This document shows, piece after piece, positions 5,923 through 49,089 of a stretch of DNA of 64,000 nt. The notes beneath the pieces were generated by a model that worked only from the letters and a program-made list of their open reading frames with translations, was not told the DNA's origin and made no database searches. This stretch comes from Bacillota bacterium (GTDB taxonomy: Bacteria; Bacillota; Limnochordia; Darwinibacteriales; JAAYFS01): positions 11,779 to 75,778 of the forward strand of contig JAAYFS010000055.1 in the NCBI GenBank assembly GCA_012728115.1. The letters run 5' to 3'. The position numbers were made by a program, and so were the translations under genes. Positions within the stretch are counted from its first letter, which is position 1. Every line of letters begins with the position of its first letter.

Positions 5923-7359
5923 ATGGAAGCAGTCTGGGAACAAAGGGTTAAAGAAGCAGTAAAGCAAAAAATCACTGGTAGAATTTTTTCCGCATTTAAT
6001 ACTAATATAGATGTAATTGTTCATTTGAACAAACAAATTATTAAACAATGGATAGACTCTACAGAAGGCTGTACTGTAGAGGCTTTAAATTCTATAGACG
6101 TAGATAACCTCGAAGTAGTAAGAGATAAATTAGATTTCTTAGCAGTTATTAAAGATTGTTTAGGGAAGGGTAAGAGCTTCTACATTGTACTAGAAGATCT
6201 CTCTTTATTCGATTGGCTGGAGGAGAATACTCCTGCACGCAGAGAAGAAATGGGTGGACAAGCAGGAATTATCGCCAACCAAATGGCTGCTCTCGATGCT
6301 ACATCGGTAGTATATACCTCGCTTCTGTCACAAAAGCAAGCTAATCTTTTCTTCCCTGAAGTATTGACACCAGTGATTGATGATAATGGCTTAAAACTTA
6401 ATCCAGTAATCGAAAGTGCAAACAAAGAAGATAGTACCAAGATTAACTGGATCTTTGAATATGCAAAAGGCATAGAATTTGACTTTGGTGGCGAAAAAGT
6501 AATCACCCCGAGAGCAAATCGCGTAATTCTCTCAACTCGTCCTGAAGGTGCAGTAATGACCTTTAAAGGACAGGTAGCTGACCACTTACCAGAGTTAGGG
6601 GAAAAGATCGATGTTGCTTTTATGGCTGGCTATCACTACTGTCCAACCGAAGAAAAAGCAATGCAAGAATACCTCACTGATTGTATTGAGGGGTTAAGAA
6701 AATTAAAACAAAACAATTCTAATCTGCATTTACACTTCGAATATGTGCCAATGAAGGATCAAGAAGCAGAAAAGAAAATGCTAACAGCAGTAGCTCAAGA
6801 AATTCAATCCTTCGGTATTAACGAAAACGAGATCAAAAGAGTACTAGCTGGATTTGGTTTCCAAAAAGAAGCGGACGAGATCGAGAAAGACGAAAGAGCA
6901 TTCTCCTTATACGAAGGGGCCTTAAGGATAATGGAGACTCTTGGTTTCGAACGAATCCAAGTTCATAATCTAGGTTACTATGTCTTAGTGCTCAAAAAAC
7001 CTTATCCAGTAGCCTTAGATCAGGTGCGAGCTTCTTGTCTCTATGCGTCAGCAGTAAATGCCATTAAGGCTAAGTACGGCGGATACGTAAAAGCAGAACA
7101 AGTAAAAGAAGCAGCTTCATTTGGTCTATCCACTATCGGAATCGAACAAATAAAAGGTTTTGAGGCTGAAATGAAGAGAAAAGGTATAGTTGTTCCTGAT
7201 AACTTCCTGGAAGAAGGAATAATAGAGTACGACAACCATTACCTAATGATTGTTCCTGCCCATGTAGTCCCCAATCCTATTAGTACTGTAGGAATGGGTG
7301 CTACCATCTCATCTTCTTCGTATGCTTGCGAATTCAGCTACGTTAGTCAAATGCGATAA
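5923..7359 (+). CDS. ADP-dependent glucokinase/phosphofructokinase-family (archaeal-type ribokinase-superfamily) homolog
   Basis: Motifs present: the NxNxD motif FNTNID, MGGQAGIIANQM, KQANLFF, and C-terminal PISTVGMGATISSSSYACEFS at the position of the GXGD motif. An intrinsic terminator follows. Confidence 0.55.
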   Translation: MEAVWEQRVKEAVKQKITGRIFSAFNTNIDVIVHLNKQIIKQWIDSTEGCTVEALNSIDVDNLEVVRDKLDFLAVIKDCLGKGKSFYIVLEDLSLFDWLEENTPARREEMGGQAGIIANQMAALDATSVVYTSLLSQKQANLFFPEVLTPVIDDNGLKLNPVIESANKEDSTKINWIFEYAKGIEFDFGGEKVITPRANRVILSTRPEGAVMTFKGQVADHLPELGEKIDVAFMAGYHYCPTEEKAMQEYLTDCIEGLRKLKQNNSNLHLHFEYVPMKDQEAEKKMLTAVAQEIQSFGINENEIKRVLAGFGFQKEADEIEKDERAFSLYEGALRIMETLGFERIQVHNLGYYVLVLKKPYPVALDQVRASCLYASAVNAIKAKYGGYVKAEQVKEAASFGLSTIGIEQIKGFEAEMKRKGIVVPDNFLEEGIIEYDNHYLMIVPAHVVPNPISTVGMGATISSSSYACEFSYVSQMR

Positions 7360-15609: not shown

Positions 15610-15996
15610 ATGGAAAGCATCATCGGCAATGGGATAGATATTATTGAAATTGGCCGAGTCAAAAAAGCGATGCAACGTAAGGGCTTTATTGATCGGATCT
15701 ATACAAAGAATGAGCAAGAATATCTTAAGAATAAACCTTATGCCTCTTGGGCTGCGCGTTTTGCAGCCAAAGAGGCAGTTATGAAAGCATTAGGTCTAGG
15801 ATTACGCGAAGGAATTCGTTTTGTTGACATTGAGATCTCAAATGATCCATACGGAAAACCACATATCACTCTATATGGTAGAAGCCTTGAAATAGCGAAT
15901 GAGTTAGGGATTTCACGGTGGTTAATTAGTCTATCTCACAGCAAGGATTTGGCTATAGCCGATGTTTTAGCGATTAAAACTGAATGTCGAAAATGA
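15610..15996 (+). CDS. acpS: holo-[acyl-carrier-protein] synthase
   Basis: GNGIDIIEIGRV at the N-terminus and a size of 128 aa fit AcpS. Confidence 0.8.
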   Translation: MESIIGNGIDIIEIGRVKKAMQRKGFIDRIYTKNEQEYLKNKPYASWAARFAAKEAVMKALGLGLREGIRFVDIEISNDPYGKPHITLYGRSLEIANELGISRWLISLSHSKDLAIADVLAIKTECRK

Positions 15997-16012
15997 GGAG
16001 TTACTTAGTAGG

Positions 16013-17539
16013 ATGAGAGTTGTTACAAGTGAAGAAATGAAAACGATCGATAGAATTGCAATTCAGGAGAAGGGTATTCCAAGCCTGAGTTTGATGGAGA
16101 ATGCAGGAAGTAGCGTAGTAAGAGCTATTGAAGATAGATATGGTTCGTTAACTGCTAAACGGATCTTGGTGCTAGTAGGTCGTGGTAATAACGGCGGGGA
16201 TGGTTTGGTTGCAGCTAGGCATCTTCTAAACAAAGGAGCACAAGTAAAAGTATTTATGCTCCACCCAGCAAATGAACTTTCACCAGAATGCCTAAAGAAT
16301 TTCGAGATTTTTAAGGCTCTTAATGGTGAATACCACTATATTACCGAACGAGATATCCATAAACTTAAACTAAGTATTGGCATTTCGGATATTGTAATCG
16401 ACGCTATTTTAGGTATAGGTGCCAAGGGTCCGTTAAAGGGACTTTATGCTACTGTGGTTGAGATTTTAAACAGTATTGATTGTAAGGTAGTAGCGATCGA
16501 TGTTCCTAGCGGCGTAGATGCCACAACAGGTAAAGTGGAGAGTGTTGCAGTTAGGGCAGACCTAACCGTTGTTCTTGGTCTGATGAAGCAAGGATTACTG
16601 CTATTGTCTGGCTTGGAATATGTCGGTGATTGGGTGGTTGCAGATATCGGAATACCGTATTCGCTAGCCTCTACAGTCAGGCGCTTTGTTACGGATGAGT
16701 CATTATACAAAGCCATTCCAACTAGACCGCGTGATGGTCATAAAGGGACTTTCGGTCATGGGTTAGTGGTTGCAGGTTCTAGGACTATGGCTGGTGCGGC
16801 ATATCTAACAAGTATAGCGATGTTGCGTGCGGGTGCTGGCATGGTGACCTTAGCCGTTCCAGAAAGTATCGCAGGCTTGTTTCCACCGAGCGAAATTATG
16901 ATCGTTCCCATTCCAGATACGCGTGATGGTTGTTTTGGGCGGACAAGTATTGCCAAGATCCTTGAACTATTTCCAGGTAAGGATGCGCTAGTTTTAGGAC
17001 CTGGGTTGGCGAGAATTGATGAAATAACCGAAGTCGTGCTAGAACTATTACTCAACTGGAAAGGCCCGTTGGTTTTAGATGCTGATGGAATAAATGCTAT
17101 CAGCGGTCAAGTAGATATGATTTTGGCGATCAATGAAGAACAGCGAAAGAACTGGATCCTCACTCCGCATCCAGGAGAAATGTCGCGACTAACAGGGGTG
17201 GATTTAGTCAAGATTATCGAAGATAGAGTTTCAATTGCTTATGAAACACAAAAAAAGCTTCAAGTAAACGTTGTTCTCAAAGGATTTCCTACTATAGTGG
17301 TTGGACCAAAACAGCTCTATCTGAATATCACAGGAAATCCTGGAATGGCCTCAGCGGGTATGGGGGATATTCTTTCGGGAATAATCGGGGGCTTGCTCTG
17401 CCAGAAAGTAGCTCCGTTAGAGGCGGCAGCTTTGGGAGTATATGTGCACGGAAAAGCAGGTGATTGTGCTAAACAGACAAAAGGGGAACGAGCATTGATC
17501 GCATCAGATGTAATTGATGCCCTCCCAGCGGTTTTGTAG
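16013..17539 (+). CDS. nnr: bifunctional NAD(P)H-hydrate epimerase/ADP-dependent dehydratase (YjeF N+C)
   Basis: GRGNNGGDGLVAARHL marks the YjeF_N domain. A C-terminal carbohydrate-kinase domain follows. Confidence 0.8.
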   Translation: MRVVTSEEMKTIDRIAIQEKGIPSLSLMENAGSSVVRAIEDRYGSLTAKRILVLVGRGNNGGDGLVAARHLLNKGAQVKVFMLHPANELSPECLKNFEIFKALNGEYHYITERDIHKLKLSIGISDIVIDAILGIGAKGPLKGLYATVVEILNSIDCKVVAIDVPSGVDATTGKVESVAVRADLTVVLGLMKQGLLLLSGLEYVGDWVVADIGIPYSLASTVRRFVTDESLYKAIPTRPRDGHKGTFGHGLVVAGSRTMAGAAYLTSIAMLRAGAGMVTLAVPESIAGLFPPSEIMIVPIPDTRDGCFGRTSIAKILELFPGKDALVLGPGLARIDEITEVVLELLLNWKGPLVLDADGINAISGQVDMILAINEEQRKNWILTPHPGEMSRLTGVDLVKIIEDRVSIAYETQKKLQVNVVLKGFPTIVVGPKQLYLNITGNPGMASAGMGDILSGIIGGLLCQKVAPLEAAALGVYVHGKAGDCAKQTKGERALIASDVIDALPAVL

Positions 17540-17565
17540 TTTATAGAGTTATGGAGTGATTAAGC

Positions 17566-18675
17566 ATGGGAAAACAAACGAGGCCTGCATGGGTTGAAGT
17601 AAATCTAGCTAGCATTGCCTACAACGTTCAGTATTTCAAAAAATTGATCCATGAGAATTGTCAATTGTTGGCCGTCGTTAAAGCAAATGCTTATGGTCAT
17701 GGTGACTTAGCTGTTGTGAGAACAGCTTTATCCAATGGGGCTACTTGGATAGGAGTCGCTTTACCTGAAGAAGGAGTAAGATTAAGGCGAGCAGGGATCG
17801 CTGCTCCAATTTTGGTACTGGGTGCAGTTGGACAAGAACAACTAGAACTATGTGTTACTAAAGATCTCGCCTGTACGGTTTTTCAATGGAGTATTGCTCA
17901 AAGCCTCTCGAATCTTGCAATAAGATACAACAAAACAGTTAGAGTGCACTTAAAAATAGATACAGGTATGGGACGTTTAGGTATTTTACCTTCGGAAGCG
18001 TTACGATTTGCAATCGCGGTAAGTAGATTACCTGGAATTCAGATTCAAGGGATTCTTACTCATTTTGCGACTGCTGATCAACCAGAAGATCAATATGTTC
18101 ATTGGCAGTTAGAGCAATTTGAAAAAGTAATCGCTGAACTCAGCGCTCACCACATTAATATTCCAATTAAGCATTGTGCTAATACCTCTGCGGTGCTCTT
18201 TTTACCAGAGGCACATTTTGATTTGGTAAGAGTGGGAATCGGTTTGTATGGATTGCATCCCCAAGGGAAAAGAAGTAATTTACATCCCGCAATGAGTTTT
18301 AAGTGTCGGATAGCGGCAGCGCGTCGAGTACCAGCAGGGTCAGCGATTAGTTATGGAGCTAGTTATATTACCAAGAAGGAAACAACGATTGCAATTTTGC
18401 CTGTAGGATATGCAGATGGAGTTAGCCGTAGGCTAAGTAATCAGGGAGAGGTTTTGATCGATGGAAATAGGTTTCCGATCATAGGGAAGGTGTGTATGGA
18501 TCACTGCATGGTCGATGTCGGAGATTTTCCAATCGAAATCGGACAAGAAGTGACACTTATCGGACGTCAAGGGAATCAGGAAATAACAGTAGAAGACTGG
18601 GCAGATTGGTTAGGTACAATAAACTACGAGGTTCCTTGTATGATTAGTGAAAGGGTACCACGAATCTATACATGA
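17566..18675 (+). CDS. alr: alanine racemase
   Basis: The PLP-Lys motif AVVKANAYGHG is present. Length is 369 aa. Confidence 0.85.
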   Translation: MGKQTRPAWVEVNLASIAYNVQYFKKLIHENCQLLAVVKANAYGHGDLAVVRTALSNGATWIGVALPEEGVRLRRAGIAAPILVLGAVGQEQLELCVTKDLACTVFQWSIAQSLSNLAIRYNKTVRVHLKIDTGMGRLGILPSEALRFAIAVSRLPGIQIQGILTHFATADQPEDQYVHWQLEQFEKVIAELSAHHINIPIKHCANTSAVLFLPEAHFDLVRVGIGLYGLHPQGKRSNLHPAMSFKCRIAAARRVPAGSAISYGASYITKKETTIAILPVGYADGVSRRLSNQGEVLIDGNRFPIIGKVCMDHCMVDVGDFPIEIGQEVTLIGRQGNQEITVEDWADWLGTINYEVPCMISERVPRIYT

Positions 18676-30927: not shown

Positions 30928-30953
30928 TTGTAGCAGTGAGAGGAGGTCGCAAT

Positions 30954-33784
<2,831 letters not shown>

Positions 33785-38057: not shown

Positions 38058-38408
38058 TGGTGGAGGTGAGCGGAGTTGCACCGCTGTCCGCAAGTGAAAT
38101 TACATTGGCCTCTCCGAGCGCAGCTACAATTTTAGAATCTCGCCAAAACACACTCCTTGTAGCTGGATTATGTTCTAGCCAGCCCATTACATTCCCCCAG
38201 AGTGCTGGGCGATTCCTCTGAAGTAACCTGCTAAGTTGACACCAGGTTTATTCCCGCAGGTAAAGAACAAACTGGCGTAACTGCTATCTTAAGCAGCTAA
38301 AGCGTAATTATTATCTGCAATTATTTTAGGTCCCAAATTTAACGAGGTTTGGGGATCTCGGCTCGCTTCCAATGCTCTTCCTACCTACGTCGAAACTAAT
38401 TCACCCCC
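38058..38408 (-). ncRNA. ssrA: transfer-messenger RNA (tmRNA)
   Basis: The minus strand reads 5' GGGGGTGAATTAGTTTCGACG ... tag ORF GCAGATAATAATTACGCTTTAGCTGCTTAA (ADNNYALAA*) ... T-arm AGCGG-TGCAACT-CCGCT, then CACCTCCACCA 3'. Length is about 351 nt. Confidence 0.8.
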
Positions 38409-38765: not shown

Positions 38766-40340
38766 ATGATGATGAGAAAACCGATCGTATTGGTGGTAAT
38801 GGACGGTATTGGGAAGGGCAAAGGGGATTTTAGTGATGCTGTTAGTTTAGCCAATACACCCACTCTCGATATGTTAATGACTAATTATCCAAACATCTTA
38901 ATTAAGGCACATGGTACTGCTGTCGGGTTACCTTCTGATGCTGATATGGGAAACAGCGAAGTAGGGCATAACGCGTTGGGATGCGGACAAATCTATTCTC
39001 AAGGAGCGAAGTTAGTAAATGAAAGTATTGAAAGAGGAGAAATCTTTGAATCTGATGTTTGGCATGAAGTGATCTCAAATTGTCTTAACAATAATTCCAT
39101 CTTACATTTTATCGGACTTTTATCTGATGGGAATGTTCACTCGAATATCAATCACTTAAAGTCGATGATCATCAAAGCCAAAGAAAGCAATGTAACCAAA
39201 GTCAGGGTTCATATTCTACTCGATGGTCGTGATGTTCCAGCTACTTCTGCTCTTGAATACGTTGATGATCTAGAAAGCCTGCTTGCAGAACTTAATTGCG
39301 ATAACTTCGATGCTCGCATAGCCTCTGGTGGAGGTAGGATGAAAATTACGATGGATAGATATCAAGCAAACTGGGATATGGTAAGACTAGGTTGGGAAAC
39401 GCATGTGCTTGGTGAGGGTAGACAGTTTACTTCTGCTCTTGAGGCTATCAAGTCGTATCGCGAGGAATTTAACGTGATCGATCAAGATCTTCCGCCTTTT
39501 GTGATCGCTGAAAATGGAAATCCTGTTGGAAGAATGAATGATGGCGATAGCGTAATCTTTTTTAATTTCCGTGGTGATCGGGCAATTGAAATAAGTATTG
39601 CCTTCGACTATCAAGATTTTGATAAATTTGATCGGAAGTATGTTCCAAAGGTGGTTTACGCAGGGATGCTTCAGTATGATGGAGACATCAATGTTCCCAA
39701 GAAATATCTTGTTAGTCCGCCAAACATCAAAAACACCTTGTCAGAGCTATTGGTGGAACATAGGATAAAGCAATATGCTGTATCGGAGACCCAAAAGTAT
39801 GGGCATATGACCTACTTTTGGAATGGAAATAGGAGTGGAAAGTTTAGCGATGAGCTGGAAGTGTTTTATGAAGTACCATCGGATCAGGTGCCTTTTGAAC
39901 AGCGTCCTTGGATGAAAGCAGCAGAAATAACTGATAAAGTAATTGAAGCGATTGAATCGGGAGAATACGGCTTCATCCGTTGTAATTATCCAAACGGTGA
40001 TATGGTAGGGCATACTGGCAACATTGATGCGACAATTATCGGTGTAGAAGCAGTTGACTTAGGTTTGGCAAGAATACTAGAGGCTGTCACCAAAAAAGAT
40101 GCAATCCTAATTGTAACAGCTGATCATGGCAATGCGGATGATATGGTAGAGATTGATAAATCGGGGAATCTGCAAATGAAAACCGCTCATTCGCTGAACC
40201 CCGTACCTTTTATTATCTTTGACAAAAACAAGGCATACAGTATTAAACCAGGTAATTATGGACTCGCGAACGTAGCTCCCACCATCGCTCGCTTATTCAA
40301 TCTAGACATACCAAAGCATTGGGAGGAGAGTATGGTATAG
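38766..40340 (+). CDS. second, divergent 2,3-bisphosphoglycerate-independent phosphoglycerate mutase paralog
   Basis: The 524-aa protein has iPGM motifs (VLVVMDGIG, NSEVGH, LLDGRDV, ADHGNADDM). It is far more divergent than the operon copy at 30954..32498. Confidence 0.8.
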   Translation: MMMRKPIVLVVMDGIGKGKGDFSDAVSLANTPTLDMLMTNYPNILIKAHGTAVGLPSDADMGNSEVGHNALGCGQIYSQGAKLVNESIERGEIFESDVWHEVISNCLNNNSILHFIGLLSDGNVHSNINHLKSMIIKAKESNVTKVRVHILLDGRDVPATSALEYVDDLESLLAELNCDNFDARIASGGGRMKITMDRYQANWDMVRLGWETHVLGEGRQFTSALEAIKSYREEFNVIDQDLPPFVIAENGNPVGRMNDGDSVIFFNFRGDRAIEISIAFDYQDFDKFDRKYVPKVVYAGMLQYDGDINVPKKYLVSPPNIKNTLSELLVEHRIKQYAVSETQKYGHMTYFWNGNRSGKFSDELEVFYEVPSDQVPFEQRPWMKAAEITDKVIEAIESGEYGFIRCNYPNGDMVGHTGNIDATIIGVEAVDLGLARILEAVTKKDAILIVTADHGNADDMVEIDKSGNLQMKTAHSLNPVPFIIFDKNKAYSIKPGNYGLANVAPTIARLFNLDIPKHWEESMV

Positions 40341-41071
40341 GGGTTGGGTTTTTTAGCAAGCATACAAGCTAGCGGCGAGATCTGCCGTTACCCAGGGCAA
40401 AGCTGCACCAGATAACATTTCGCTCTTACGGCGTGATTAAGTTAATGATTGAGGTGGGGAATAGGGAAAATTTTTGAATCACCGCTAAGCCTCGAAAAAA
40501 TCGTTTGTGCAAGGAAGGCTTGTTATTAGACTAGATAGAGAAGTTGCATAGGAAAGTTACAGGTATCTTGATTGATAGGCTAACGTTATTGCTAATTAAT
40601 GGAAGATAGTTGGACAAAAGGTTTTATTTTGAAAGAGAACGTAGGCGCGGAATTTGCGAATAATACCAAATAGGTGTTGAACCAATGTGAAAAACTGGGG
40701 TTAATAGAACTCAACCATCTATCATTGTTAAAAGGAATAAAATGTGGATACGTCCTTTTACACAGACTATGGTGATGGTAAGACGCTTCTGGGGTAATAG
40801 CGGGGACGATTAATGATCAAATCAAGATCATATACTATGATGGTATTAATAACTCACCCATGATGGAAGTCCAGATGATCTGGAGGGTATTTTCCCCTTT
40901 AGCGGTCAGTGCGAACCACAAATGAACATAAAATCCTGGGAGGTTCCCACATAGCTCTAGAAGCCCATTACAGGGTCTTACAAGGAAAAATGTTAAATAA
41001 ATAGAAATAAAAAATGCGGTTCGCACACACTGCTTTTGAAACAAGCCTATGGAAAGGGTTTGTGCACCCTA

Positions 41072-41236
41072 CGGTCGCACCCTGTGCGGGTGCGTGGATT
41101 GAAACCGTCACTTAAATGTAACAGCCAAATCTCCTGCACTGTCGCACCCTGTGCGGGTGCGTAGATTGAAACTCTTTGCTTCGCGCATAATGTTTTCGCC
41201 TTCTTTGTCGTACCTTGTGCGGGTGAGCGGATTTTA
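41072..41236 (+). CRISPR. orphan CRISPR mini-array of 3 repeats and 2 spacers; 32-nt type I-C-like repeat GTCGCACCCTGTGCGGGTGCGTGGATTGAAAC
   Basis: Repeats lie at 41072-41103 (consensus), 41139-41170 (1 mismatch) and 41205-41236 (degenerate terminal copy). Spacers are 35 and 34 nt. The ...ATTGAAAC 3' end is typical of I-C/I-B repeats. No cas genes are in the window. Confidence 0.65.
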
Positions 41237-41657
41237 ATCTTAAGAAAACAATGTTTTAAATCTGAACCCTACTTTTTAGAACTATTTTATCTGAAATTCG
41301 CTAACAGCGAGTTTTTTTAAAAAAGGACTTTTTACTACGTTTTTAATCAAGGACTAGTACTCTTATTCCATCCCCTCTCTACTATTAAGAAATGAATACT
41401 ACCCTATTATCCCATGCATACTCTAACTGCATTCAATTTTTTATATATTAACAATGCCCCTACTGATTGGTCGGATGTCGCATCTTATTTAAGATGTTAT
41501 CCAAACTAATATCGCCTTGACCCAAAGAATCAGCGGTATTATCTTAAAAAGTGGGTGCGCAACCACCGGTTGCGACATTTCCAAGTGCAATATATAGAAT
41601 AGCAACCAGGGTTTTTGATAGGATAAAGCTAATTATTGAAGCAAAAGAGGTGGTAAA

Positions 41658-42248
41658 ATGAAATTGGATGAAAAAATCCTTTACTGTCGTAAAAGAGCGG
41701 GGTTATCGCAAGAGGAATTAGGTGAGAAAATAGGAGTATCTCGTCAAGCAATCAGCAAATGGGAGACAGGGGAATCTGTTCCAGAATTAGGAAAAATTAT
41801 ACTTTTGGCAGATATTTTTCAAGTAACAACAGATTGGTTGTTAAAGGATGGAGAAGGGGAGGAAGTTAGAGATTCAAAAGAAGCTCAGGCTGTGAATATA
41901 ACTCCTAATTGGGTAGAGTCCATTCCTGGTGTAATAGGCAATTTAATTAAAAAATATGGTTGGTTGTTCGGTGTATATTTGGCGATCTCAGGAGCAATAT
42001 CTATTGGTTTTGGAATTGCTGGTAAATTGATGTTCCGAAGTTTTATGCAAAACTCTCCTTTTTCAAATGAAACAACCTTCTTTTTCGATGCTCCAGGGTT
42101 TTCTGCCAGTAACTCTTTCGGCTTTGGAGTTAGTTCGGATCCATCCTCTTATATAACTGGATTCGTGATCATACTGGGAACCATTTTTCTTGTAGGTGGT
42201 ATAATTCTGGCTATCGTTCTAAAAAGAAAAGGGGTAGAGAAGGTATAA
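41658..42248 (+). CDS. membrane-anchored XRE-family HTH transcriptional regulator
   Basis: The N-terminal HTH_3 (LSQEELGEKIGVSRQAISKWETGE) is followed by two predicted TM helices (WLFGVYLAISGAISIGFGIAG and ITGFVIILGTIFLVGGIILAIVL). Confidence 0.7.
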   Translation: MKLDEKILYCRKRAGLSQEELGEKIGVSRQAISKWETGESVPELGKIILLADIFQVTTDWLLKDGEGEEVRDSKEAQAVNITPNWVESIPGVIGNLIKKYGWLFGVYLAISGAISIGFGIAGKLMFRSFMQNSPFSNETTFFFDAPGFSASNSFGFGVSSDPSSYITGFVIILGTIFLVGGIILAIVLKRKGVEKV

Positions 42249-42453: not shown

Positions 42454-43539
42454 CTAAAATAGTAGAAGTAGATCGAATAGATCGAACATATAGTTAAACA
42501 ATTGAATTTCGGTTTCGGAAATACCAATCGAACTTTCATCAAAAATGAAAACCAGGTCAATTCTAGCGATCTCTTGAATTATTTCCGCTCGTTGCTCACG
42601 CGTGGTTAGCTCGCCTCGCGTTACTATCATTGCTAGGCGCTCTGACATCACAAAACCAAAAGAAAAAGCGTCGGTTTCTAAAATAAATAGTATTTTATCT
42701 GGTATCAGAGCTGCTTCGTCAAATAAATTTTCCATAATTACGATCGGATAACTTACCACGCCGTCGGAAGCTAGTGCAATAACAAAGATTGGTTCGGTTT
42801 CCATCACATCTTCATTATCGAGAACGGCAAGCAATTGTTCGAAAATATCCATCTGATGGATAGATATTATTTGAAAACCTTCTGGTAATGGTAAGGATGA
42901 GATGTTTGCCCAAGGTACAAGACTGCTAAACTCTTCCGTAGTAATTCTCGTTATGGTTGAACCAAGGGGAAATTCGGGAATACTAGCTAAATCAAGCTTT
43001 GAAATATCTGGATCATAATCTACGACAATCGTTTCTCGCACATAGATAATATTACCTTCATCATCGTACTGATAGAATTTTAGAATTAAGCCGCTTTCTA
43101 AATCGACGTATAATGTATTCACTAACCTATTATCCCTTTTATGGTAGAGTTCGATAACGATACAGTCTCGTTCTGCTACCTGTTGGAAATCAACTATTCT
43201 GAACTCATAGTTTGATAGAAGAAGACTAAGGTTGTCGCTTGTTCTTCGAAACTGTACTTCCTCCTTCAAATTATATTCCAATTGGAATTGTTGAAATGGG
43301 ATGATGGAATCTTCTCCATCTGAACCAGTTTGAAGAACGTAAATATTATCAACATAGTAGATCTCCGTTGTGGTAGCATACGTTTCATCTAAGTAAACAG
43401 TGGTAATTTGCTTAAAATATACGTTTTCGAACTTAGGTTTCGCAATAGGAAGCCAATAATCAATCTTTGCCGAAACCATCATGGAAAAACTTAGCAATGC
43501 AAGTACGCAGACCAACATACTGAACGCTATTCTTTTCAT
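42454..43539 (-). CDS. secreted protein of unknown function, paralog A of a tandem family (possible LolA/RseB-like fold)
   Basis: A signal peptide in a 361-aa protein. It shares blocks with the next two genes: NYEFRIVDFQQVAERDCIVIELYHKRDN, VDYDPDIS, PEGFQ and C-terminal TREQRAEIIQEIARIDLV. Confidence 0.6.
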   Translation of the reverse strand: MKRIAFSMLVCVLALLSFSMMVSAKIDYWLPIAKPKFENVYFKQITTVYLDETYATTTEIYYVDNIYVLQTGSDGEDSIIPFQQFQLEYNLKEEVQFRRTSDNLSLLLSNYEFRIVDFQQVAERDCIVIELYHKRDNRLVNTLYVDLESGLILKFYQYDDEGNIIYVRETIVVDYDPDISKLDLASIPEFPLGSTITRITTEEFSSLVPWANISSLPLPEGFQIISIHQMDIFEQLLAVLDNEDVMETEPIFVIALASDGVVSYPIVIMENLFDEAALIPDKILFILETDAFSFGFVMSERLAMIVTRGELTTREQRAEIIQEIARIDLVFIFDESSIGISETEIQLFNYMFDLFDLLLLF

Positions 43540-43689
43540 AGGCCTTTTCTGCCACCTTTCTTTTACTTTTCAAGCTTGCATCCATTTTGGGATTGACAAC
43601 CAAGAATCGCTGGTTTTGGCTACGGACATCAAAAAATGTCACTATAGCCTTAGATACGTTGAGTCCAATTAAAGACTTGGAACAGCTCT

Positions 43690-44730
43690 TTATTCCCTGG
43701 TTAAATCAAGAACCAGCTCAATATTAGTTAAAGCCTTTATAATCTCTATTCTTTCTTCGTGAGATATCACATCGCTGGTAATTGCTATAGCCATATCTTG
43801 ACCTTCATTTAAAACAATTGCAATGGTAGTAGCAGAAAGTTTTTCAACAATAGCAATTATTGCTTCTGGTAACAATTCAGCAACACTTTCTAAGAGCGAA
43901 TCGAACATTATTACGATATCTATGGTTTCTAGGCCGTCAGAGATTATAATGGTAAAACCAGTCGATTGATAGGTCTGCTGAGGTGATCTCGAAGAAGCAT
44001 CCTGAAAATCCAAAACCTCTGTTTCGTATATTGCATGAAAGAAATCTACTGCTCGAAACCCTTCTGGCGATAGTAAGGAGTCAAGATCCACCCATGGCAG
44101 GCGTTCGAGGAGTTCGGTTTTAGATATGCGTTCGAAATGAACTACCGTGTCATTGGTGGAAGTATTATCCAGATTGATATGAGAAACATCTGGATCGTAA
44201 TCTACACTTACTGCTTCGTAGGACTCGACCAATTTTCCATCCTCGTCGTAATAGTATTCGTTGAGACTTATTCCAGTTTTAAGATCGACTACATATTTTA
44301 TTTTCAAAGAATTTTGTTTTTTATCATGCAGCTCGATCACCACGCAGTCTCGAGCTAATACTTGTTGAAAACCAACTATTCGCAACTCATAGTTTGAAAA
44401 AAGGACTTCAAGATATTCGCTTAAACGCCATGTAGCGGTCTGAAGTTCTGGGTCGTATTCCTGTATTCTCTGGGCTGAGTCTGTGCTAAATAAACCTTCT
44501 GCGGTTTCCGTTATTTCAACAAACGTGTTATCAAAAAGATAGTATTCAACTATTGATGTATAAACCTCATCCGCATACTCGACATACTTTTGCTTTAGAT
44601 ATAATTTTTCAAAATTGTTTTCAATAAAAGGGAATCCTGGTGGTAGGGCATCAGATATCATTATTGACTGACTGACCAAAAACAATAAGCAAAAACATAA
44701 ACAGGAAATCGTTTTTTCATTTCGTCTCAA
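43690..44730 (-). CDS. secreted protein of unknown function, paralog B
   Basis: A signal peptide in a 346-aa protein. Shared blocks: NYELRIVGFQQVLARDCVVIELHDKKQN, VDYDPDVS, PEGFR, HEERIEIIKALTNIELV. Confidence 0.6.
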   Translation of the reverse strand: MRRNEKTISCLCFCLLFLVSQSIMISDALPPGFPFIENNFEKLYLKQKYVEYADEVYTSIVEYYLFDNTFVEITETAEGLFSTDSAQRIQEYDPELQTATWRLSEYLEVLFSNYELRIVGFQQVLARDCVVIELHDKKQNSLKIKYVVDLKTGISLNEYYYDEDGKLVESYEAVSVDYDPDVSHINLDNTSTNDTVVHFERISKTELLERLPWVDLDSLLSPEGFRAVDFFHAIYETEVLDFQDASSRSPQQTYQSTGFTIIISDGLETIDIVIMFDSLLESVAELLPEAIIAIVEKLSATTIAIVLNEGQDMAIAITSDVISHEERIEIIKALTNIELVLDLTRE

Positions 44731-44781
44731 TCCGCCTTATATTAAATTTTAATCCTTTAGAAAACCATTAGGCGAATCGCC

Positions 44782-45839
44782 CTAAAATAAATATTGTAAC
44801 CAAAAGTCGGAAGAGTTAACATTATCAATGTTGGTTAACGACTGGATGACCTCTGTTCGTTGTTCGTGTGTCATAAAATCGCCTTCGATCATGATCACAA
44901 TAGGAGTTGGGTCAAAAACTATGCCTATCGTTGAGTTTTGGTATTCAGCAATTGCAAGTATTGTTTCGTCGCTAAATTCAATACTATCTTCTGTGAGATA
45001 AGGGACTTGGATTTGAATCGTGAATAGATTCAAACCATCGGACACAATAATGATTAGGAAAAGATCTTGGTGTTCATCTTTGGTTTCCGTAATTGACTCA
45101 GTAATATATTCTGATTCGATGTCAAGAGCTACAGAAATAATCTCGGCGAAGCCTATAACTTGAAAGCCTTCTGGCAGAGGCAAGGACGTAAGATTTATCC
45201 ATGGAACAAGCTCAGCGAACTCTTCGGCGGTATAAATTAAACCGTCGAACTCAACACCGAAATTTGTAATACCATCTGCTTCAAGTACAGATAAATTGGG
45301 ATCGTAGTCAATTTCCAGTGTTTCCATACTAGCAATAATATTACCTTCGCTATCATATCGGTACTCCTTCAGAATATGGTTCGTCTCTATATCAACAATC
45401 ACTGTAAACACCAATGAATTGTCTTTTTTCTTGTAGACATCCATTTCGATACAGTCGCGTCCTGCAACTTCTTGGAAACCTACCATTCTAACTTCGTAGT
45501 TTGATAAAAAGACTTTTTTGCTTCTGTTGATCTTATTACTTTTTCCATAAAACCGAAATTGCTCTGCAATCTAAATGTTTCGTCCTCTACCCATTCGTCA
45601 AATTGTCGAGCCTTGAATTGAGTAATTATTGTATCCTCACCGAAGTAAAAGTCCGCCTCAAGTTTGAAAACTTCTGGTCCGTGATCAGTAAAGACTACTT
45701 TGGCATAAATGTTATCCACCTTTTTTTCAAGAAACATAAGTATAGGATACGCGAAAGTTATAGGCTCTGCTAGCGCAATGCTCGATACGATAAACACTAT
45801 CGCTAGACAAATCATAGAACTAGTTAACACTTTTTTCAT
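44782..45839 (-). pseudogene. paralog C of the same family, disrupted by a frameshift
   Basis: The N-terminal piece (45480..45839, with signal peptide) and the C-terminal piece (44782..45570, an open frame without ATG that contains FLSNYEVRMVGFQEVAGRDC) overlap in different frames. Together they are about 360 aa, like the intact paralogs. Confidence 0.5.
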
Positions 45840-46220
45840 TCATGAAGACCGCCTTTCATTGTATTTTATGGTTCAAAAAATATGTTGCATCTTTAAAAAA
45901 GTTAGCCAAAAAAATAAACAAAAACGGACATAAGTTTCTTGTTCTGCAAATACTAATTTTGACATCAATTTAATACAATACTTAAATTATTTATTCTAAA
46001 ATCCTTTACCAAATTGGACAAGAATCAATTAAAAAATAAAGGAGGACCCCATATTGATGTTGCCCCCTAATTCCGTGTCTGGATTTGAGGGTTCGCATCA
46101 TATCTGAGTATCCTCCTAAATCAACGCTATTTTTTACATGACTTTAATACCGTTCTCAATCTTAATCATTATTCCAAACTAAACTCAAATCAAAGCCAAA
46201 CCAAAACTAAAAACCCAACT

Positions 46221-46676
46221 TTAACGCTTACTTAAAGCTCTTTCAATTCGCCGTGCTGCATCTTTCTTGGCGATCGCGTCTCTCTTATCATATTTACGTT
46301 TACCCTTAGCTACCGCTAGTTCAATCTTACATTTCCCTCTTTTGAAATAAAGTCTCAAGGGAATCAAGGTATAACCTTGCTCCTGAGTTCTGCCTACCAA
46401 GCGATTAATTTCCCGCTTATGTAGTAAAAGTTTGCGGACACGTAAAGGGTCATGGTTAAATCGATTGCCTTGCTCGTAAGGGCTGATATGCATCCCGTGA
46501 AGAAAAACTTCGCCATCTTTAATTCTGGCAAAACTATCGCTAATATTAACTTTCCCTAAACGCAAGGATTTTACCTCTGTTCCTTGCAGAGCAATCCCAG
46601 CTTCGATAGTATCTTCGATAAAGTAATCATGTCGTGCTTTTCGATTATGAGTAATAATCTTAATTTCTTCCACCAT
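46221..46676 (-). CDS. smpB: SsrA-binding protein
   Basis: [30 protein letters not shown] is present in a 151-aa protein. Confidence 0.9.
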
Positions 46677-46811: not shown

Positions 46812-48569
46812 TTGATTAGGAGCAGATGTTTTTTTTATTTATGTAGCATCATACTAATACTTGGTCTTGCAGCCCAAAATAATTATGCCAAAGCCTTTGA
46901 ACTATTTATCGGAGAAAGATCGATTGAGCTAGAATCGCCCCTAATGGTGGTCAACGGCAAAATTCTCGTTCCATTGCAGTTAATTTCAGATGAATTTGAG
47001 GCAATTACAAAAGTTGATCAAGAGAATAACTCTATCGAAATTGATATCCAAAACGACAAGATAACAATGTATCTTGGTAGCACAGATGTCCTATACAACG
47101 GGAAAAAAGAAACTTTGGAAGTCAGCCCACGCCAAAGTAATGATACAATAATGGTACCTTTAGGCTTCATTGCTGATAAATTAGGAGTAAACGTTTCGTT
47201 AGGTTTCTCTGAAATCCAGAATTTGGATTCAAAAGAAACAAATACTGATCACGAATCGCCAAATAATGAAAGAATAGTATATATTGGTGGTCCGCGTTCC
47301 CAGATCTTTCTTGATGTAAAAGAATATACTGGATATCGAAGCACTTTATTAACCAACCCAGATCGGCTTGTCGTCGATATCCTAGGTTATGAAGGCGAAC
47401 CTTTAGAGGAAACCATAATCGATGGAGCGATCGTAAAAAGCGTTGAAAGCACCTTGCTGGATGCCAATACTTTACGAGTGTTTTTTTACTTTAATATCTC
47501 TACGGGTTATGAAATTAAGAATCTTCCCGAAGGCGGGCTTACTGTTGATTTTAACTACTTAATCGATACGGTGGGTTTTGAAAGAATCAATAACAAACCG
47601 ATTATCTGGTTTAATGCGAGCGATAAACCAGAGATAACAGAAATAGAGTTAGTGGATCCACAACGGTTAGTACTTGATCTTCATGATTCTACCTTGCTTG
47701 GGCAAGCAAGAGAATATGAAGTTTCGGATAGTGTTGTGAGGCGTTTACGAATAAGCCAGTTAAACTCAGCAACCACTAGAATTGTGCTAGAATTAAATTC
47801 ACCGATGGTATCCTTACACTATGGCTTTGCTAACGAACGATTAGAGATGGTAATGTTCGAAGGAACCTCGGAAATGGCCCAAGAATATTTAGCGAAGCTT
47901 GAAATGCAGAAACAGGAATCAGAAACAATTCCTCAGGATTTTGAAGTAGATGAGTACATAGTCAGCGAAGGAACAATTCTTACAGATATTGAAAGTGAAA
48001 TTTCTCTTCTTAAAGGAAGAATTATTTGTATTGACCCAGGACATGGCGGGTCGGATCCAGGGTCGATTGGACTTCAAGGTACTTATGAAAAGGATGTAGT
48101 ACTGTCGATCTCACTCTTATTAGGTAATTTACTTGAAGGAGCGGGCGCTAAAGTGGTTTATACCAGAGACGATGATAGCTATATCTCGATCTTTGAAAGA
48201 CCAATGGTTGCGATGCGCCATGATTCGGAAATCTTGATTTCGATTCATGCTAACGGATATGTCGGAGGATTGGTGAGTGGAACCGAAACCTTGTACCATC
48301 CAAAAGATACCCTCAATCTTATATTAGCTGAAGCAATTCAAACACATTTGATTGATGCGATTCAATTACCCAACAGAGGTTTAATTCAACGACCAGATCT
48401 GGCACTTTTAAGAGTATCTGAAATACCGACGGTATTAGTCGAGGTCGCATTTATCACTCACCCAAAAGAAGAACAGCTACTTAAAGCTGAAGGATTTCAG
48501 CTGATGGTAGCGGAAGGAATTTTTCGTGGTATTCTAGAGTTTTTTGAAATTCTAGCAAGCGAGAGGTGA
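46812..48569 (+). CDS. N-acetylmuramoyl-L-alanine amidase (Amidase_3) with N-terminal copper-amine-oxidase-like and spacer domains
   Basis: A signal peptide is followed by KILVPLQLISDEF and MVPLGFIADKLGV repeats, then the C-terminal DPGHGGSDPG...SIHANG amidase_3 core. Confidence 0.75.
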   Translation: MIRSRCFFYLCSIILILGLAAQNNYAKAFELFIGERSIELESPLMVVNGKILVPLQLISDEFEAITKVDQENNSIEIDIQNDKITMYLGSTDVLYNGKKETLEVSPRQSNDTIMVPLGFIADKLGVNVSLGFSEIQNLDSKETNTDHESPNNERIVYIGGPRSQIFLDVKEYTGYRSTLLTNPDRLVVDILGYEGEPLEETIIDGAIVKSVESTLLDANTLRVFFYFNISTGYEIKNLPEGGLTVDFNYLIDTVGFERINNKPIIWFNASDKPEITEIELVDPQRLVLDLHDSTLLGQAREYEVSDSVVRRLRISQLNSATTRIVLELNSPMVSLHYGFANERLEMVMFEGTSEMAQEYLAKLEMQKQESETIPQDFEVDEYIVSEGTILTDIESEISLLKGRIICIDPGHGGSDPGSIGLQGTYEKDVVLSISLLLGNLLEGAGAKVVYTRDDDSYISIFERPMVAMRHDSEILISIHANGYVGGLVSGTETLYHPKDTLNLILAEAIQTHLIDAIQLPNRGLIQRPDLALLRVSEIPTVLVEVAFITHPKEEQLLKAEGFQLMVAEGIFRGILEFFEILASER

Positions 48570-48573
48570 GTAT

Positions 48574-49089
48574 ATGAACAACCGAAGATTCATAAGCATA
48601 TTACTGTTGCTGTTAGTAATATTTGCGAGTATTAGAATCGGGACTGAAAAATTGATCGACATCTTCTCGCCATCCCGTAACGAATACTTTATTGTCTACT
48701 TCGCTTCTGTGGATGCAACTAGATTAGTGCCCGAATATCGATCGGGTAAGGGAACGATCGAAGAAAGGCTCCTGGCTTTGCAAAATGGGCCACAGACCGC
48801 TGGTTTAGTTAATGTTTTAAGCAAGGGTGCGCGCCCATTAGCCTATGAAGTAAGAGGCGATACTCTTTTTGTTAGCTTTAGTAAAGAATTAGTGCTAAAT
48901 CATCCTGGCGGCAGTGCTGGTGAACTGATCACAATTTACGGGATCGTGAATACTTTGACGGAGATACCTGAAATTAAGCGGGTTCAAATTCTTGTGGAAG
49001 GCAGGTTTATCGAAACTTTAGCGGGTCATGTTTCATTACTCCAACCACTTGAAAGGGATCCCACACTTTTAGGTAGTTCTCTTATTTAA
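48574..49089 (+). CDS. GerMN-domain (sporulation/germination-associated) protein
   Basis: A signal anchor precedes a GerMN-like block (LQNGP...ITIYGIVNTLTEIPEIKRVQILVEG). Confidence 0.6.
   Translation: MNNRRFISILLLLLVIFASIRIGTEKLIDIFSPSRNEYFIVYFASVDATRLVPEYRSGKGTIEERLLALQNGPQTAGLVNVLSKGARPLAYEVRGDTLFVSFSKELVLNHPGGSAGELITIYGIVNTLTEIPEIKRVQILVEGRFIETLAGHVSLLQPLERDPTLLGSSLI

Follow-up and report, generated by a model that had tools for sequence, protein, structure and literature searches.

What are the three similar genes that lie in tandem between smpB and the gene of a membrane-bound regulator in an uncultured bacterium of the Bacillota? The genes, here called A, B and C, are encoded by the minus strand of a 64,000-nucleotide stretch of contig JAAYFS010000055.1 (positions 11,779 to 75,778; hereafter the window), and all positions given without a locus number refer to this stretch (Table 1). 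A preliminary description of the locus, made from the sequence, recognised three consecutive paralogs with signal peptides and listed their function as unknown. This description of their function turned out to be too weak. The trio is not a family of unknown kind, but consists of distant genes of the RseB/MucB family, whose two-domain fold we could model and whose relatives are found in operons with genes for extracytoplasmic function (ECF) sigma factors and presumed anti-sigma factors. The reading that we favour, with modest confidence, is that the trio encodes exported RseB/MucB-family proteins of two domains, and that its genes are detached, tandem-triplicated copies of a module that elsewhere is linked to a sigma factor. 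The branch to which they belong is rare and so far unannotated, and is found in uncultured Bacillota.

RseB of Escherichia coli and MucB of Pseudomonas aeruginosa are the periplasmic partners of the anti-sigma factors RseA and MucA, respectively, and are textbook sensors of trouble in the outer membrane and its lipopolysaccharide (LPS) in Proteobacteria. The ligand of RseB is derived from LPS, and the RseB-type C-terminal domain (PF17188) contacts the anti-sigma factor.

Family identity of A, B and C

The Pfam family MucB_RseB (PF03888) was matched by the N-terminal half of A with 30.3 bits and by that of B with 28.6 bits, above the gathering cut-off of 22.3, which agrees with the earlier impression that these halves are LolA- or RseB-like. 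The NCBIfam RseB model could also be aligned to residues 103-231 of A (E=6.7e-4, far under the equivalog cut-off). A word-indexed homolog search with A returned only A itself, and with the family profile almost nothing. An exhaustive HMMER search, with a profile of the three copies against 1.84 billion cluster representatives, gave 59 hits at E<=1e-3, among them about 15 relatives of full length (P0005-P0018). The others are fragments or match the N-terminal domain only; all the distant hits bear the name 'hypothetical protein'. Throughout the family the same assignment recurred: MucB_RseB was matched by all 15 members at E<=1 (best 4.5e-9) and NCBIfam RseB by 5 of them, and no other NCBIfam family was found repeatedly. 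When the family profile was compared with the sequences of the PDB, the top matches were MucB (6in9, E=2e-5) and RseB (2p4b, E=0.055).

The preliminary description had proposed structure prediction on A as a check, and had named homology to an anti-sigma partner as an outcome that would count against it. We built an AlphaFold2 model of A on an alignment of 15 sequences, which reached a pLDDT of 74.4 and a pTM of 0.70 (an earlier alignment of 3 sequences gave a pLDDT of 54.8, and the resulting model was not used). In a Foldseek comparison with the PDB, the top 15 matches of the model were all RseB or MucB (E from 7e-13 to 1.5e-9, over ~320 columns), that is, the fold obtained is the one of known anti-sigma partners. 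The next matches were single-domain LolA-like folds, with E of 2e-4. This result suggests that the whole two-domain architecture is RseB/MucB-like, beyond the N-terminal half. We conclude that A, B and C belong to the RseB/MucB family, on the evidence of sequence for the N-terminal domain and of the predicted structure for the whole protein. The half-barrels of LolA, LolB, LppX and LprG are single-domain, whereas the trio, according to the model, adds an RseB-type second domain and stays under the cut-off of Pfam LolA_like.

That the three minus-strand genes are paralogs, as had been stated before, is clear from their alignments. By BLASTP, A can be aligned with B over 337 aa (35% identity, E=3e-51), with the C-terminal part of C over 232 aa (41% identity, E=9e-51) and with the N-terminal part of C at E=7e-5. 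Global pairwise identity among the three is 31-35%, a level at which synonymous sites are saturated; the differences between strains amount to 7 substitutions in 3.7 kb, counted against an assembly of 2x coverage. The ideas put forward earlier, of a decoy or of a surface family under diversifying selection, thus received no support from the sequences. Conservation is spread unevenly: the second half of the N-terminal domain is 45-54% identical among A, B and C and the C-terminal domain 28-36%, and the first half of the N-terminal domain is the most diverged, with 15-29%. The motif blocks reported earlier are present (NYE.R.V.FQ.V..RDC, [VI]DYDP[DN].S, PEGF[QR] and E[QE]R.E[IV]I). The regular expressions originally written for them, however, do not hold exactly for all three copies: B reads ELHDKKQN and EER, C reads NYEVRMV and IDYDP, and A ends in IIQEIAR.

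Judged from their sequences, the products of the trio are exported proteins with cleavable-looking signal peptides. The N-termini of A and C show a Lys/Arg-containing n-region and a hydrophobic core, followed by putative cleavage sites after VSA and before K in A, and after ALA and before E in C. Similar sites, of the type AXA followed by Q, can be read across the family alignment.

Two further features of the proteins were observed. Six relatives of 454-495 aa (P0006, P0007, P0009, P0010, P0012 and P0014) contain a second copy of the C-terminal domain, visible as a repeated pattern of PW..L..P.GF, SDG and a helix; RseB and MucB lack such a duplication. The C-termini of A and C are hydrophobic or aromatic tails, which are present neither in B nor in most homologs, and the tail of A was modelled as a helix of low confidence.

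Relatives in sigma factor operons

The relatives of the trio revealed a recurrent operon. In six independent lineages, a gene for an ECF sigma factor is followed by one for a small protein with a single transmembrane segment and then by the RseB-like gene, with stop and start codons that overlap or abut. The linked sigma factors are ~180-250 aa long and contain Sigma70_r2 and r4, and the small proteins have 105-121 aa. The C-terminal tails of the latter, which are placed outside, share [FY]SPYPSP[YH]...L..L.KGG, a motif at which the RseB-like protein may dock. In a neighbour-joining tree (no bootstrap), A, B and C formed a single clade on long branches, and the sigma-linked members were scattered, basal branches included. 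These placements suggest that sigma linkage is ancestral in this RseB-like branch. The single clade further indicates that a detached gene was triplicated within the lineage of the trio, in line with the local expansion of paralogs that had been proposed.

By analogy with RseB-RseA and MucB-MucA, the ancestral gene would have been the third of an operon, behind those of an ECF sigma factor and of a small one-pass membrane protein (the presumed anti-sigma factor). The exported RseB-like protein would clamp, via its C-terminal domain, the short extracytoplasmic tail of the anti-sigma factor, and the clamped tail would be shielded from the first proteolytic cut. A ligand, probably a lipid or another amphiphile, accommodated in the LolA-like N-terminal domain would displace the RseB-like protein from the tail; this release would expose the anti-sigma factor to proteolysis and free the ECF sigma factor. 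In the genome studied here, the module would have been separated from its sigma/anti-sigma pair, none being found in the 64-kb window, and three tandem copies would have arisen downstream of smpB. The copies would then have diverged to about one third identity, the first half of the ligand-binding domain having changed the most; C is dead and the start of B apparently compromised. Binding of an anti-sigma factor, release by a ligand and a partner elsewhere in this genome are inferred. Different ligand specificities of A, B and C would explain why the first half of this domain is so diverged, and relaxed constraint would do so equally well. The family context found elsewhere also fits the suggestion, made in the preliminary description, of an envelope-associated sensing module.

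The trio thus resembles RseB and MucB in its length (~320-360 aa), in its predicted export and in the N-terminal LolA-like domain that matches MucB_RseB, and its relatives take the same third place as rseB does in rpoE-rseA-rseB. It differs from RseB and MucB in being only 13-20% identical to them in structure-based alignments, in having a C-terminal domain that is unrecognisable by sequence, and in its host, known as a metagenome-assembled genome (MAG) of an uncultured member of the Bacillota with no outer-membrane genes seen in the window. The small membrane proteins linked to the relatives are unrelated in sequence to RseA and MucA and carry another tail motif, and, unlike the rseB and mucB loci, the window has three tandem copies and neither a sigma nor an anti-sigma gene.

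The interest of the locus lies mainly at the level of the family, that is, in an RpoE-RseA-RseB-like switch of three genes, with a different mini anti-sigma factor, in Firmicute-like MAGs. A paper on ECF classification links RseB with group ECF02 only, and in the literature on ECF groups linked to RseB outside Proteobacteria we likewise found only ECF02. The locus points to a third, very rare RseB-like branch in uncultured Bacillota, in which the three-gene operon was kept in several lineages. If the hosts are single-membraned, the signal against which the RseB fold guards their anti-sigma factors would not be LPS, a point of relevance to the debate on whether Firmicutes descend from a double-membraned ancestor. 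As for annotation, three 'hypothetical proteins' become RseB/MucB-like proteins, of which one is intact, one doubtful and one encoded by a pseudogene.

A number of observations, however, weigh against this interpretation. In tblastn searches with the linked sigma factors and small proteins, we could not detect any ECF sigma-like or anti-sigma-like open reading frame (ORF) in the 64-kb window, and a motif scan of its six-frame translation gave no tail-motif protein of the linked small-protein type; a partner in this organism is therefore hypothetical. The known ligand of RseB is LPS-derived, and the window shows no outer-membrane genes of the host. The linked small membrane proteins match no anti-sigma family of Pfam, nor any other Pfam family, and their role as anti-sigma factors is presumed solely from position and topology. 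Three relatives are without sigma linkage, as is the trio: in L002, a CheX gene and one for a CheY-type response regulator lie upstream of the RseB-like gene; in L008, an ORF that looks superoxide-dismutase-like in translation lies downstream; and in L019 no sigma or anti-sigma gene is found upstream. PF17188 (MucB_RseB_C) was matched by 1 of the 15 family members, without significance (E 0.065), a profile of the C-terminal domain gave nothing relevant in the PDB, and the assignment of this domain comes from a model of medium confidence. Finally, a single RseB/MucB-like protein of Firmicutes has been characterised, SsdC (YdcC) of Bacillus subtilis, and its function is not one in sigma-factor control (PMC7769602).

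A variant of the arrangement was seen in L010, where the gene directly downstream of the RseB-like gene encodes a protein of 720 aa with an ECF-like N-terminus (r2 and r4) and an extension of ~550 aa that has no Pfam match.

Reading frames of B and C and rival explanations

C had already been called a pseudogene, and our analysis supports this. Its two halves join by a single -1 shift inside gcA_AAA_AAG, and in the all-frame translation the downstream frame can be read upstream to ...KKVFLSNYEVRMVGFQEV; apart from this shift, the frames of C carry no stop codons. The same A6 was found in two further assemblies of the species (L001 and L017), the first of which contains an extra CA insertion within C, indicating that C is a real pseudogene. 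The shift is most simply explained by a deletion from A7 to A6 in an ancestral gca-aaa-aaa-gtc. We also considered programmed -1 frameshifting of the dnaX type, given that the heptamer is in phase for it, and rejected it as the leading reading. A heptamer A_AAA_AAG in phase is the automatic product of the above deletion, the RNA downstream has no significant structure (z = -1.43), and no Shine-Dalgarno-like element was found upstream of the heptamer. The heptamer is conserved in three near-identical assemblies, and the paralogs and homologs of C are single-frame.

For B, the only in-frame start in the window is a TTG, with a Shine-Dalgarno sequence just 1 nt off. The likely ancestral ATG, preceded at 11 nt by a Shine-Dalgarno sequence AAGGCGGA, is put out of frame by the A-run following it, which has six residues. 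In L001, an independent assembly of low coverage (2x) that is 99.4% identical to the window, this run has seven, and B starts as ATG-MKKTISCLCFCLLFLV..., giving a textbook signal peptide (start of the product, MKKTISCLCFCLLFLVSQSIMISDA). Since the indels of L001 relative to the window are nearly all deletions, the extra A is probably real. Therefore, of the signal peptides described on all three proteins, those of A and C stand, and that of B depends on which start is used: TTG in the window, or ATG with A7 in L001. Both B and C are out of frame through an A6 where A7 would give the canonical ORF, and these A6/A7 differences could be short-tract on/off variation or merely the commonest kind of indel.

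The damaged frames raise the question of whether the trio is a decaying remnant, that is, the relic of a lost sigma/anti-sigma/RseB-like module in which C is dead, the start of B has been disabled and A is perhaps non-functional or drifting. The frameshift of C, shared by three assemblies of which one has a further indel, the out-of-frame ATG of B in the window, the lack of a partner in the window, the GC content of 0.35-0.37 over the trio against ~0.41 in the surroundings and the long branches of A, B and C in the tree would all be consistent with decay. We consider it unlikely, however, as A is intact, B is intact with A7 in L001 and C is free of stops besides the single shift; each of the 13 residues that are invariant in the family is retained by A, B and the fragment of C, and the three copies were maintained long enough to reach ~33% identity without decay. 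The most far-reaching reading would be a Firmicute switch of the RpoE-RseA-RseB type with a new mini anti-sigma factor (a one-pass protein with the tail SPYPSPY...KGG), to which the trio, encoded away from the switch, adds three diverged trans-acting sensors as a multi-input array on one anti-sigma factor, two of them toggled by poly-A runs (A6/A7 at the start of B, A6 in C). We regard this elaborate version as improbable; if it is true and the host has no outer membrane, the sensor ligand cannot be the LPS-derived one of RseB.

Among explanations that dispense with a sigma factor, we compared the trio with SsdC, a membrane-anchored mother-cell protein of B. subtilis that influences spore shape and cortex assembly, has no reported sigma link and was interpreted as a repurposed remnant without a sigma-factor role (PMC7769602). 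SsdC is RseB-like, has ~338 aa and an N-terminal hydrophobic segment, and comes from a spore former (PMC7769602). The trio is likewise found in a Firmicute, has a similar length, an RseB-like extracytoplasmic part and no linked sigma/anti-sigma pair in the window, and lies close to genes for sporulation and the cell wall (the AMIN amidase and GerM/Germane). Nevertheless, a role of this kind, in the assembly of spore cortex or coat at the outer face of the mother-cell or forespore membrane and unrelated to sigma control, is in our view quite unlikely. The relatives of the trio are embedded in ECF sigma operons, and nothing of the sort has been reported for ssdC. Read from the sequence, the N-termini carry conserved AXA sites and look cleavable, in contrast to the uncleaved anchor of SsdC, which by its description is a single-copy, sporulation-specific protein and so is set apart from a trio whose branch is sigma-linked elsewhere. 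The ssdC gene of B. subtilis lies between acpS and alr, whereas the acpS-nnr-alr genes of the window have no RseB-like gene among them and the trio is located elsewhere. In a published survey, homologs of SsdC were found in Bacillales and a few others, and in only 1 of 193 Clostridiales (PMC7769602).

The two neighbouring loci offered other candidates for a partner. On one side lies the gene of an XRE-family helix-turn-helix protein, which had been described as divergent from the trio and considered as a possible partner of it. This gene is in fact convergent with A, 3' end facing 3' end, so that the two have no promoter region in common. The trio might bind the ~40-aa outside loop of this regulator, which would then act as a tethered repressor in place of a sigma/anti-sigma pair: the genes are adjacent, and the loop contains NSPFSNE, which is kept in the closest XRE homologs. 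Nothing else in the window, translated in six frames, fits a loosened version of the tail motif (a pattern picked after the loop had been seen). Yet we find such a partnership hardly credible. The XRE family with two transmembrane segments is huge: at E<=1e-5 it comprises 2959 hits, of which at least the 120 best span nearly the full length and several carry the label Oscillospiraceae or Eubacteriales. The RseB-like branch, in comparison, has ~15 full-length relatives among 59 hits. No RseB-like neighbour was found in the contexts of XRE homologs that we examined, be it the one with 66% identity, which keeps NSPFSNE (L020/L021), or a more distant one (L022/L023). The profile search that had been suggested for the spread of the family and its pairing gave the same answer from the other side, as no XRE gene was found next to any of the RseB-like relatives that we examined. 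The size of the XRE family and the contexts of its homologs suggest that the pairing is coincidental, and, with the orientation of the genes, led us to reject it.

On the other side, 1 kb away, lies an amidase gene, and GerS of Clostridioides difficile is known to activate an amidase. A GerS-like activator of this Amidase_3 enzyme, or a generic LolA-like carrier of lipoproteins or lipids, would accord with the LolA-type fold of the N-terminal domain and with the weak matches to LolA_like in 7 of the 15 family members. Both are very improbable, since these matches remain below the cut-off (B, 18.9 versus 30 bits; A, no match), single-domain folds score well under RseB and MucB, no lipobox is present, the amidase gene is on the opposite strand past smpB, and no relative has an amidase neighbour. 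The role of an amidase helper was rejected on the weak structural similarity and the lack of conserved linkage.

Surroundings of the locus

The trio is surrounded by core chromosome. The window contains the cluster cggR-gap-pgk-tpi-gpmI-eno, genes of an RND pump with a MarR regulator, the tmRNA gene, a second iPGM gene and smpB, and further the AMIN-domain amidase, GerM, murI, a Mur ligase, rph, rdgB and tRNAs; no integrase or transposase was seen in it. The best NCBIfam match of the amidase was CwlD, under the cut-off. AMIN domains are more typical of double-membraned bacteria. In the spacer between smpB and C, the count of sigma-70-like matches was no higher than the shuffled expectation.

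Table 1. Positions of features in the window and, where an L number is given, in loci of relatives or further assemblies.
Feature	Position	Strand	Description
Paralog A	42454-43539	-	361 aa; sole unambiguously intact copy; NLY11675.1, NCBI name 'hypothetical protein'
Parts of A	residues of A		Signal peptide MKRIAFSMLVCVLALLSFSMMVSA, next residue K; RseB/MucB-like N-terminal LolA-type domain ~35-180; C-terminal domain ~195-335; hydrophobic tail
Tail of A	42454-42530	-	...NYMFDLFDLLLLF
Paralog B	43690-44730	-	346 aa if read from TTG at 44730
Likely ancestral ATG of B	44720-44718	-	Out of frame in the window
A6 run after B ATG	44712-44717	-	A6 in the window, A7 in L001 (L001 8819-8830)
Paralog C	44782-45839	-	Pseudogene; repaired reading is a 352-aa full-length paralog
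Tail of C	44782-44810	-	...SSDFWLQYLF
N-terminal ORF of C	45480-45839	-	119 aa, signal peptide included
C-terminal ORF of C	44782-45486	-	234 aa; reading frame extends 44782-45513
A6+G run in C	45513-45519	-	A_AAA_AAG, phase right for a -1 slip; A6 at 45519-45514
Spacer between smpB and C	45840-46220	-	381 nt; probable promoter region of the trio; weak sigma-70-like matches
smpB	46221-46676	-	Same strand as and upstream of the trio; NCBIfam SmpB 222 bits
XRE-family helix-turn-helix protein	41658-42248	+	Two transmembrane segments, ~40-aa outside loop; Pfam HTH_3 E=1.4e-17
Amidase	46812-48569	+	585 aa; signal sequence, copper-amine-oxidase-like, AMIN and Amidase_3 domains
GerM/Germane protein	48574-49089	+	After the amidase; followed by murI, Mur ligase, rph, rdgB
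acpS, nnr, alr	15610-15996, 16013-17539, 17566-18675		No RseB-like gene among them (15610-18675)
tmRNA gene	38058-38408	-	Tag ADNNYALAA
iPGM of the gap cluster	30936-32498	+
Second iPGM	38766-40340	+
CRISPR-like array	41074-41238	+	Three repeats GTCGCACCCTGTGCGGGTGCGTGGATTGAAAC, third degenerate at 71%
ORF-free gap	40340-41658		Contains the CRISPR-like array
ADP-dependent kinase	5923-7359	+	478 aa; PF04587, E=8e-67
Sigma-linked lineages	L003/L005; L004/L006/L007; L009; L011/L012; L014-L016; L013 (partial)		ECF sigma factor, small one-pass protein, RseB-like protein
Small one-pass proteins	L003 4658-5002; L004 3562-3927; L009 592-912; L011 3044-3361; L014 5687-6004; L013 3-260
720-aa protein	L010 7531-9693		Directly downstream of the RseB-like gene
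Duplicated C-terminal domain	L002 9338-10774; L003 4999-6447		Relatives with the repeated pattern

The tmRNA gene and smpB lie on the same strand, 7.8 kb apart, and are separated by the second iPGM gene, a CRISPR remnant, the XRE gene and the RseB-like trio, over which the GC content dips. This interval could be an old insertion between smpB and ssrA. The two iPGM paralogs are 39% identical; one lies within the gap-pgk-tpi-gpmI-eno cluster, and the other stands alone between the tmRNA gene and the CRISPR remnant. The latter is a mini array whose three repeats are spaced by 67 and 66 nt, leaving two spacers, and we take the repeats to resemble those of type I-C. No cas genes were noted in the annotated parts of the window, and the 1.3 kb around the array contain no ORF of more than 70 aa. 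Elsewhere in the window, we observed a gene for a protein that matches the ADP-dependent phosphofructokinase/glucokinase family, which is known mainly from archaea and hence would be unusual in a Firmicute-like genome.

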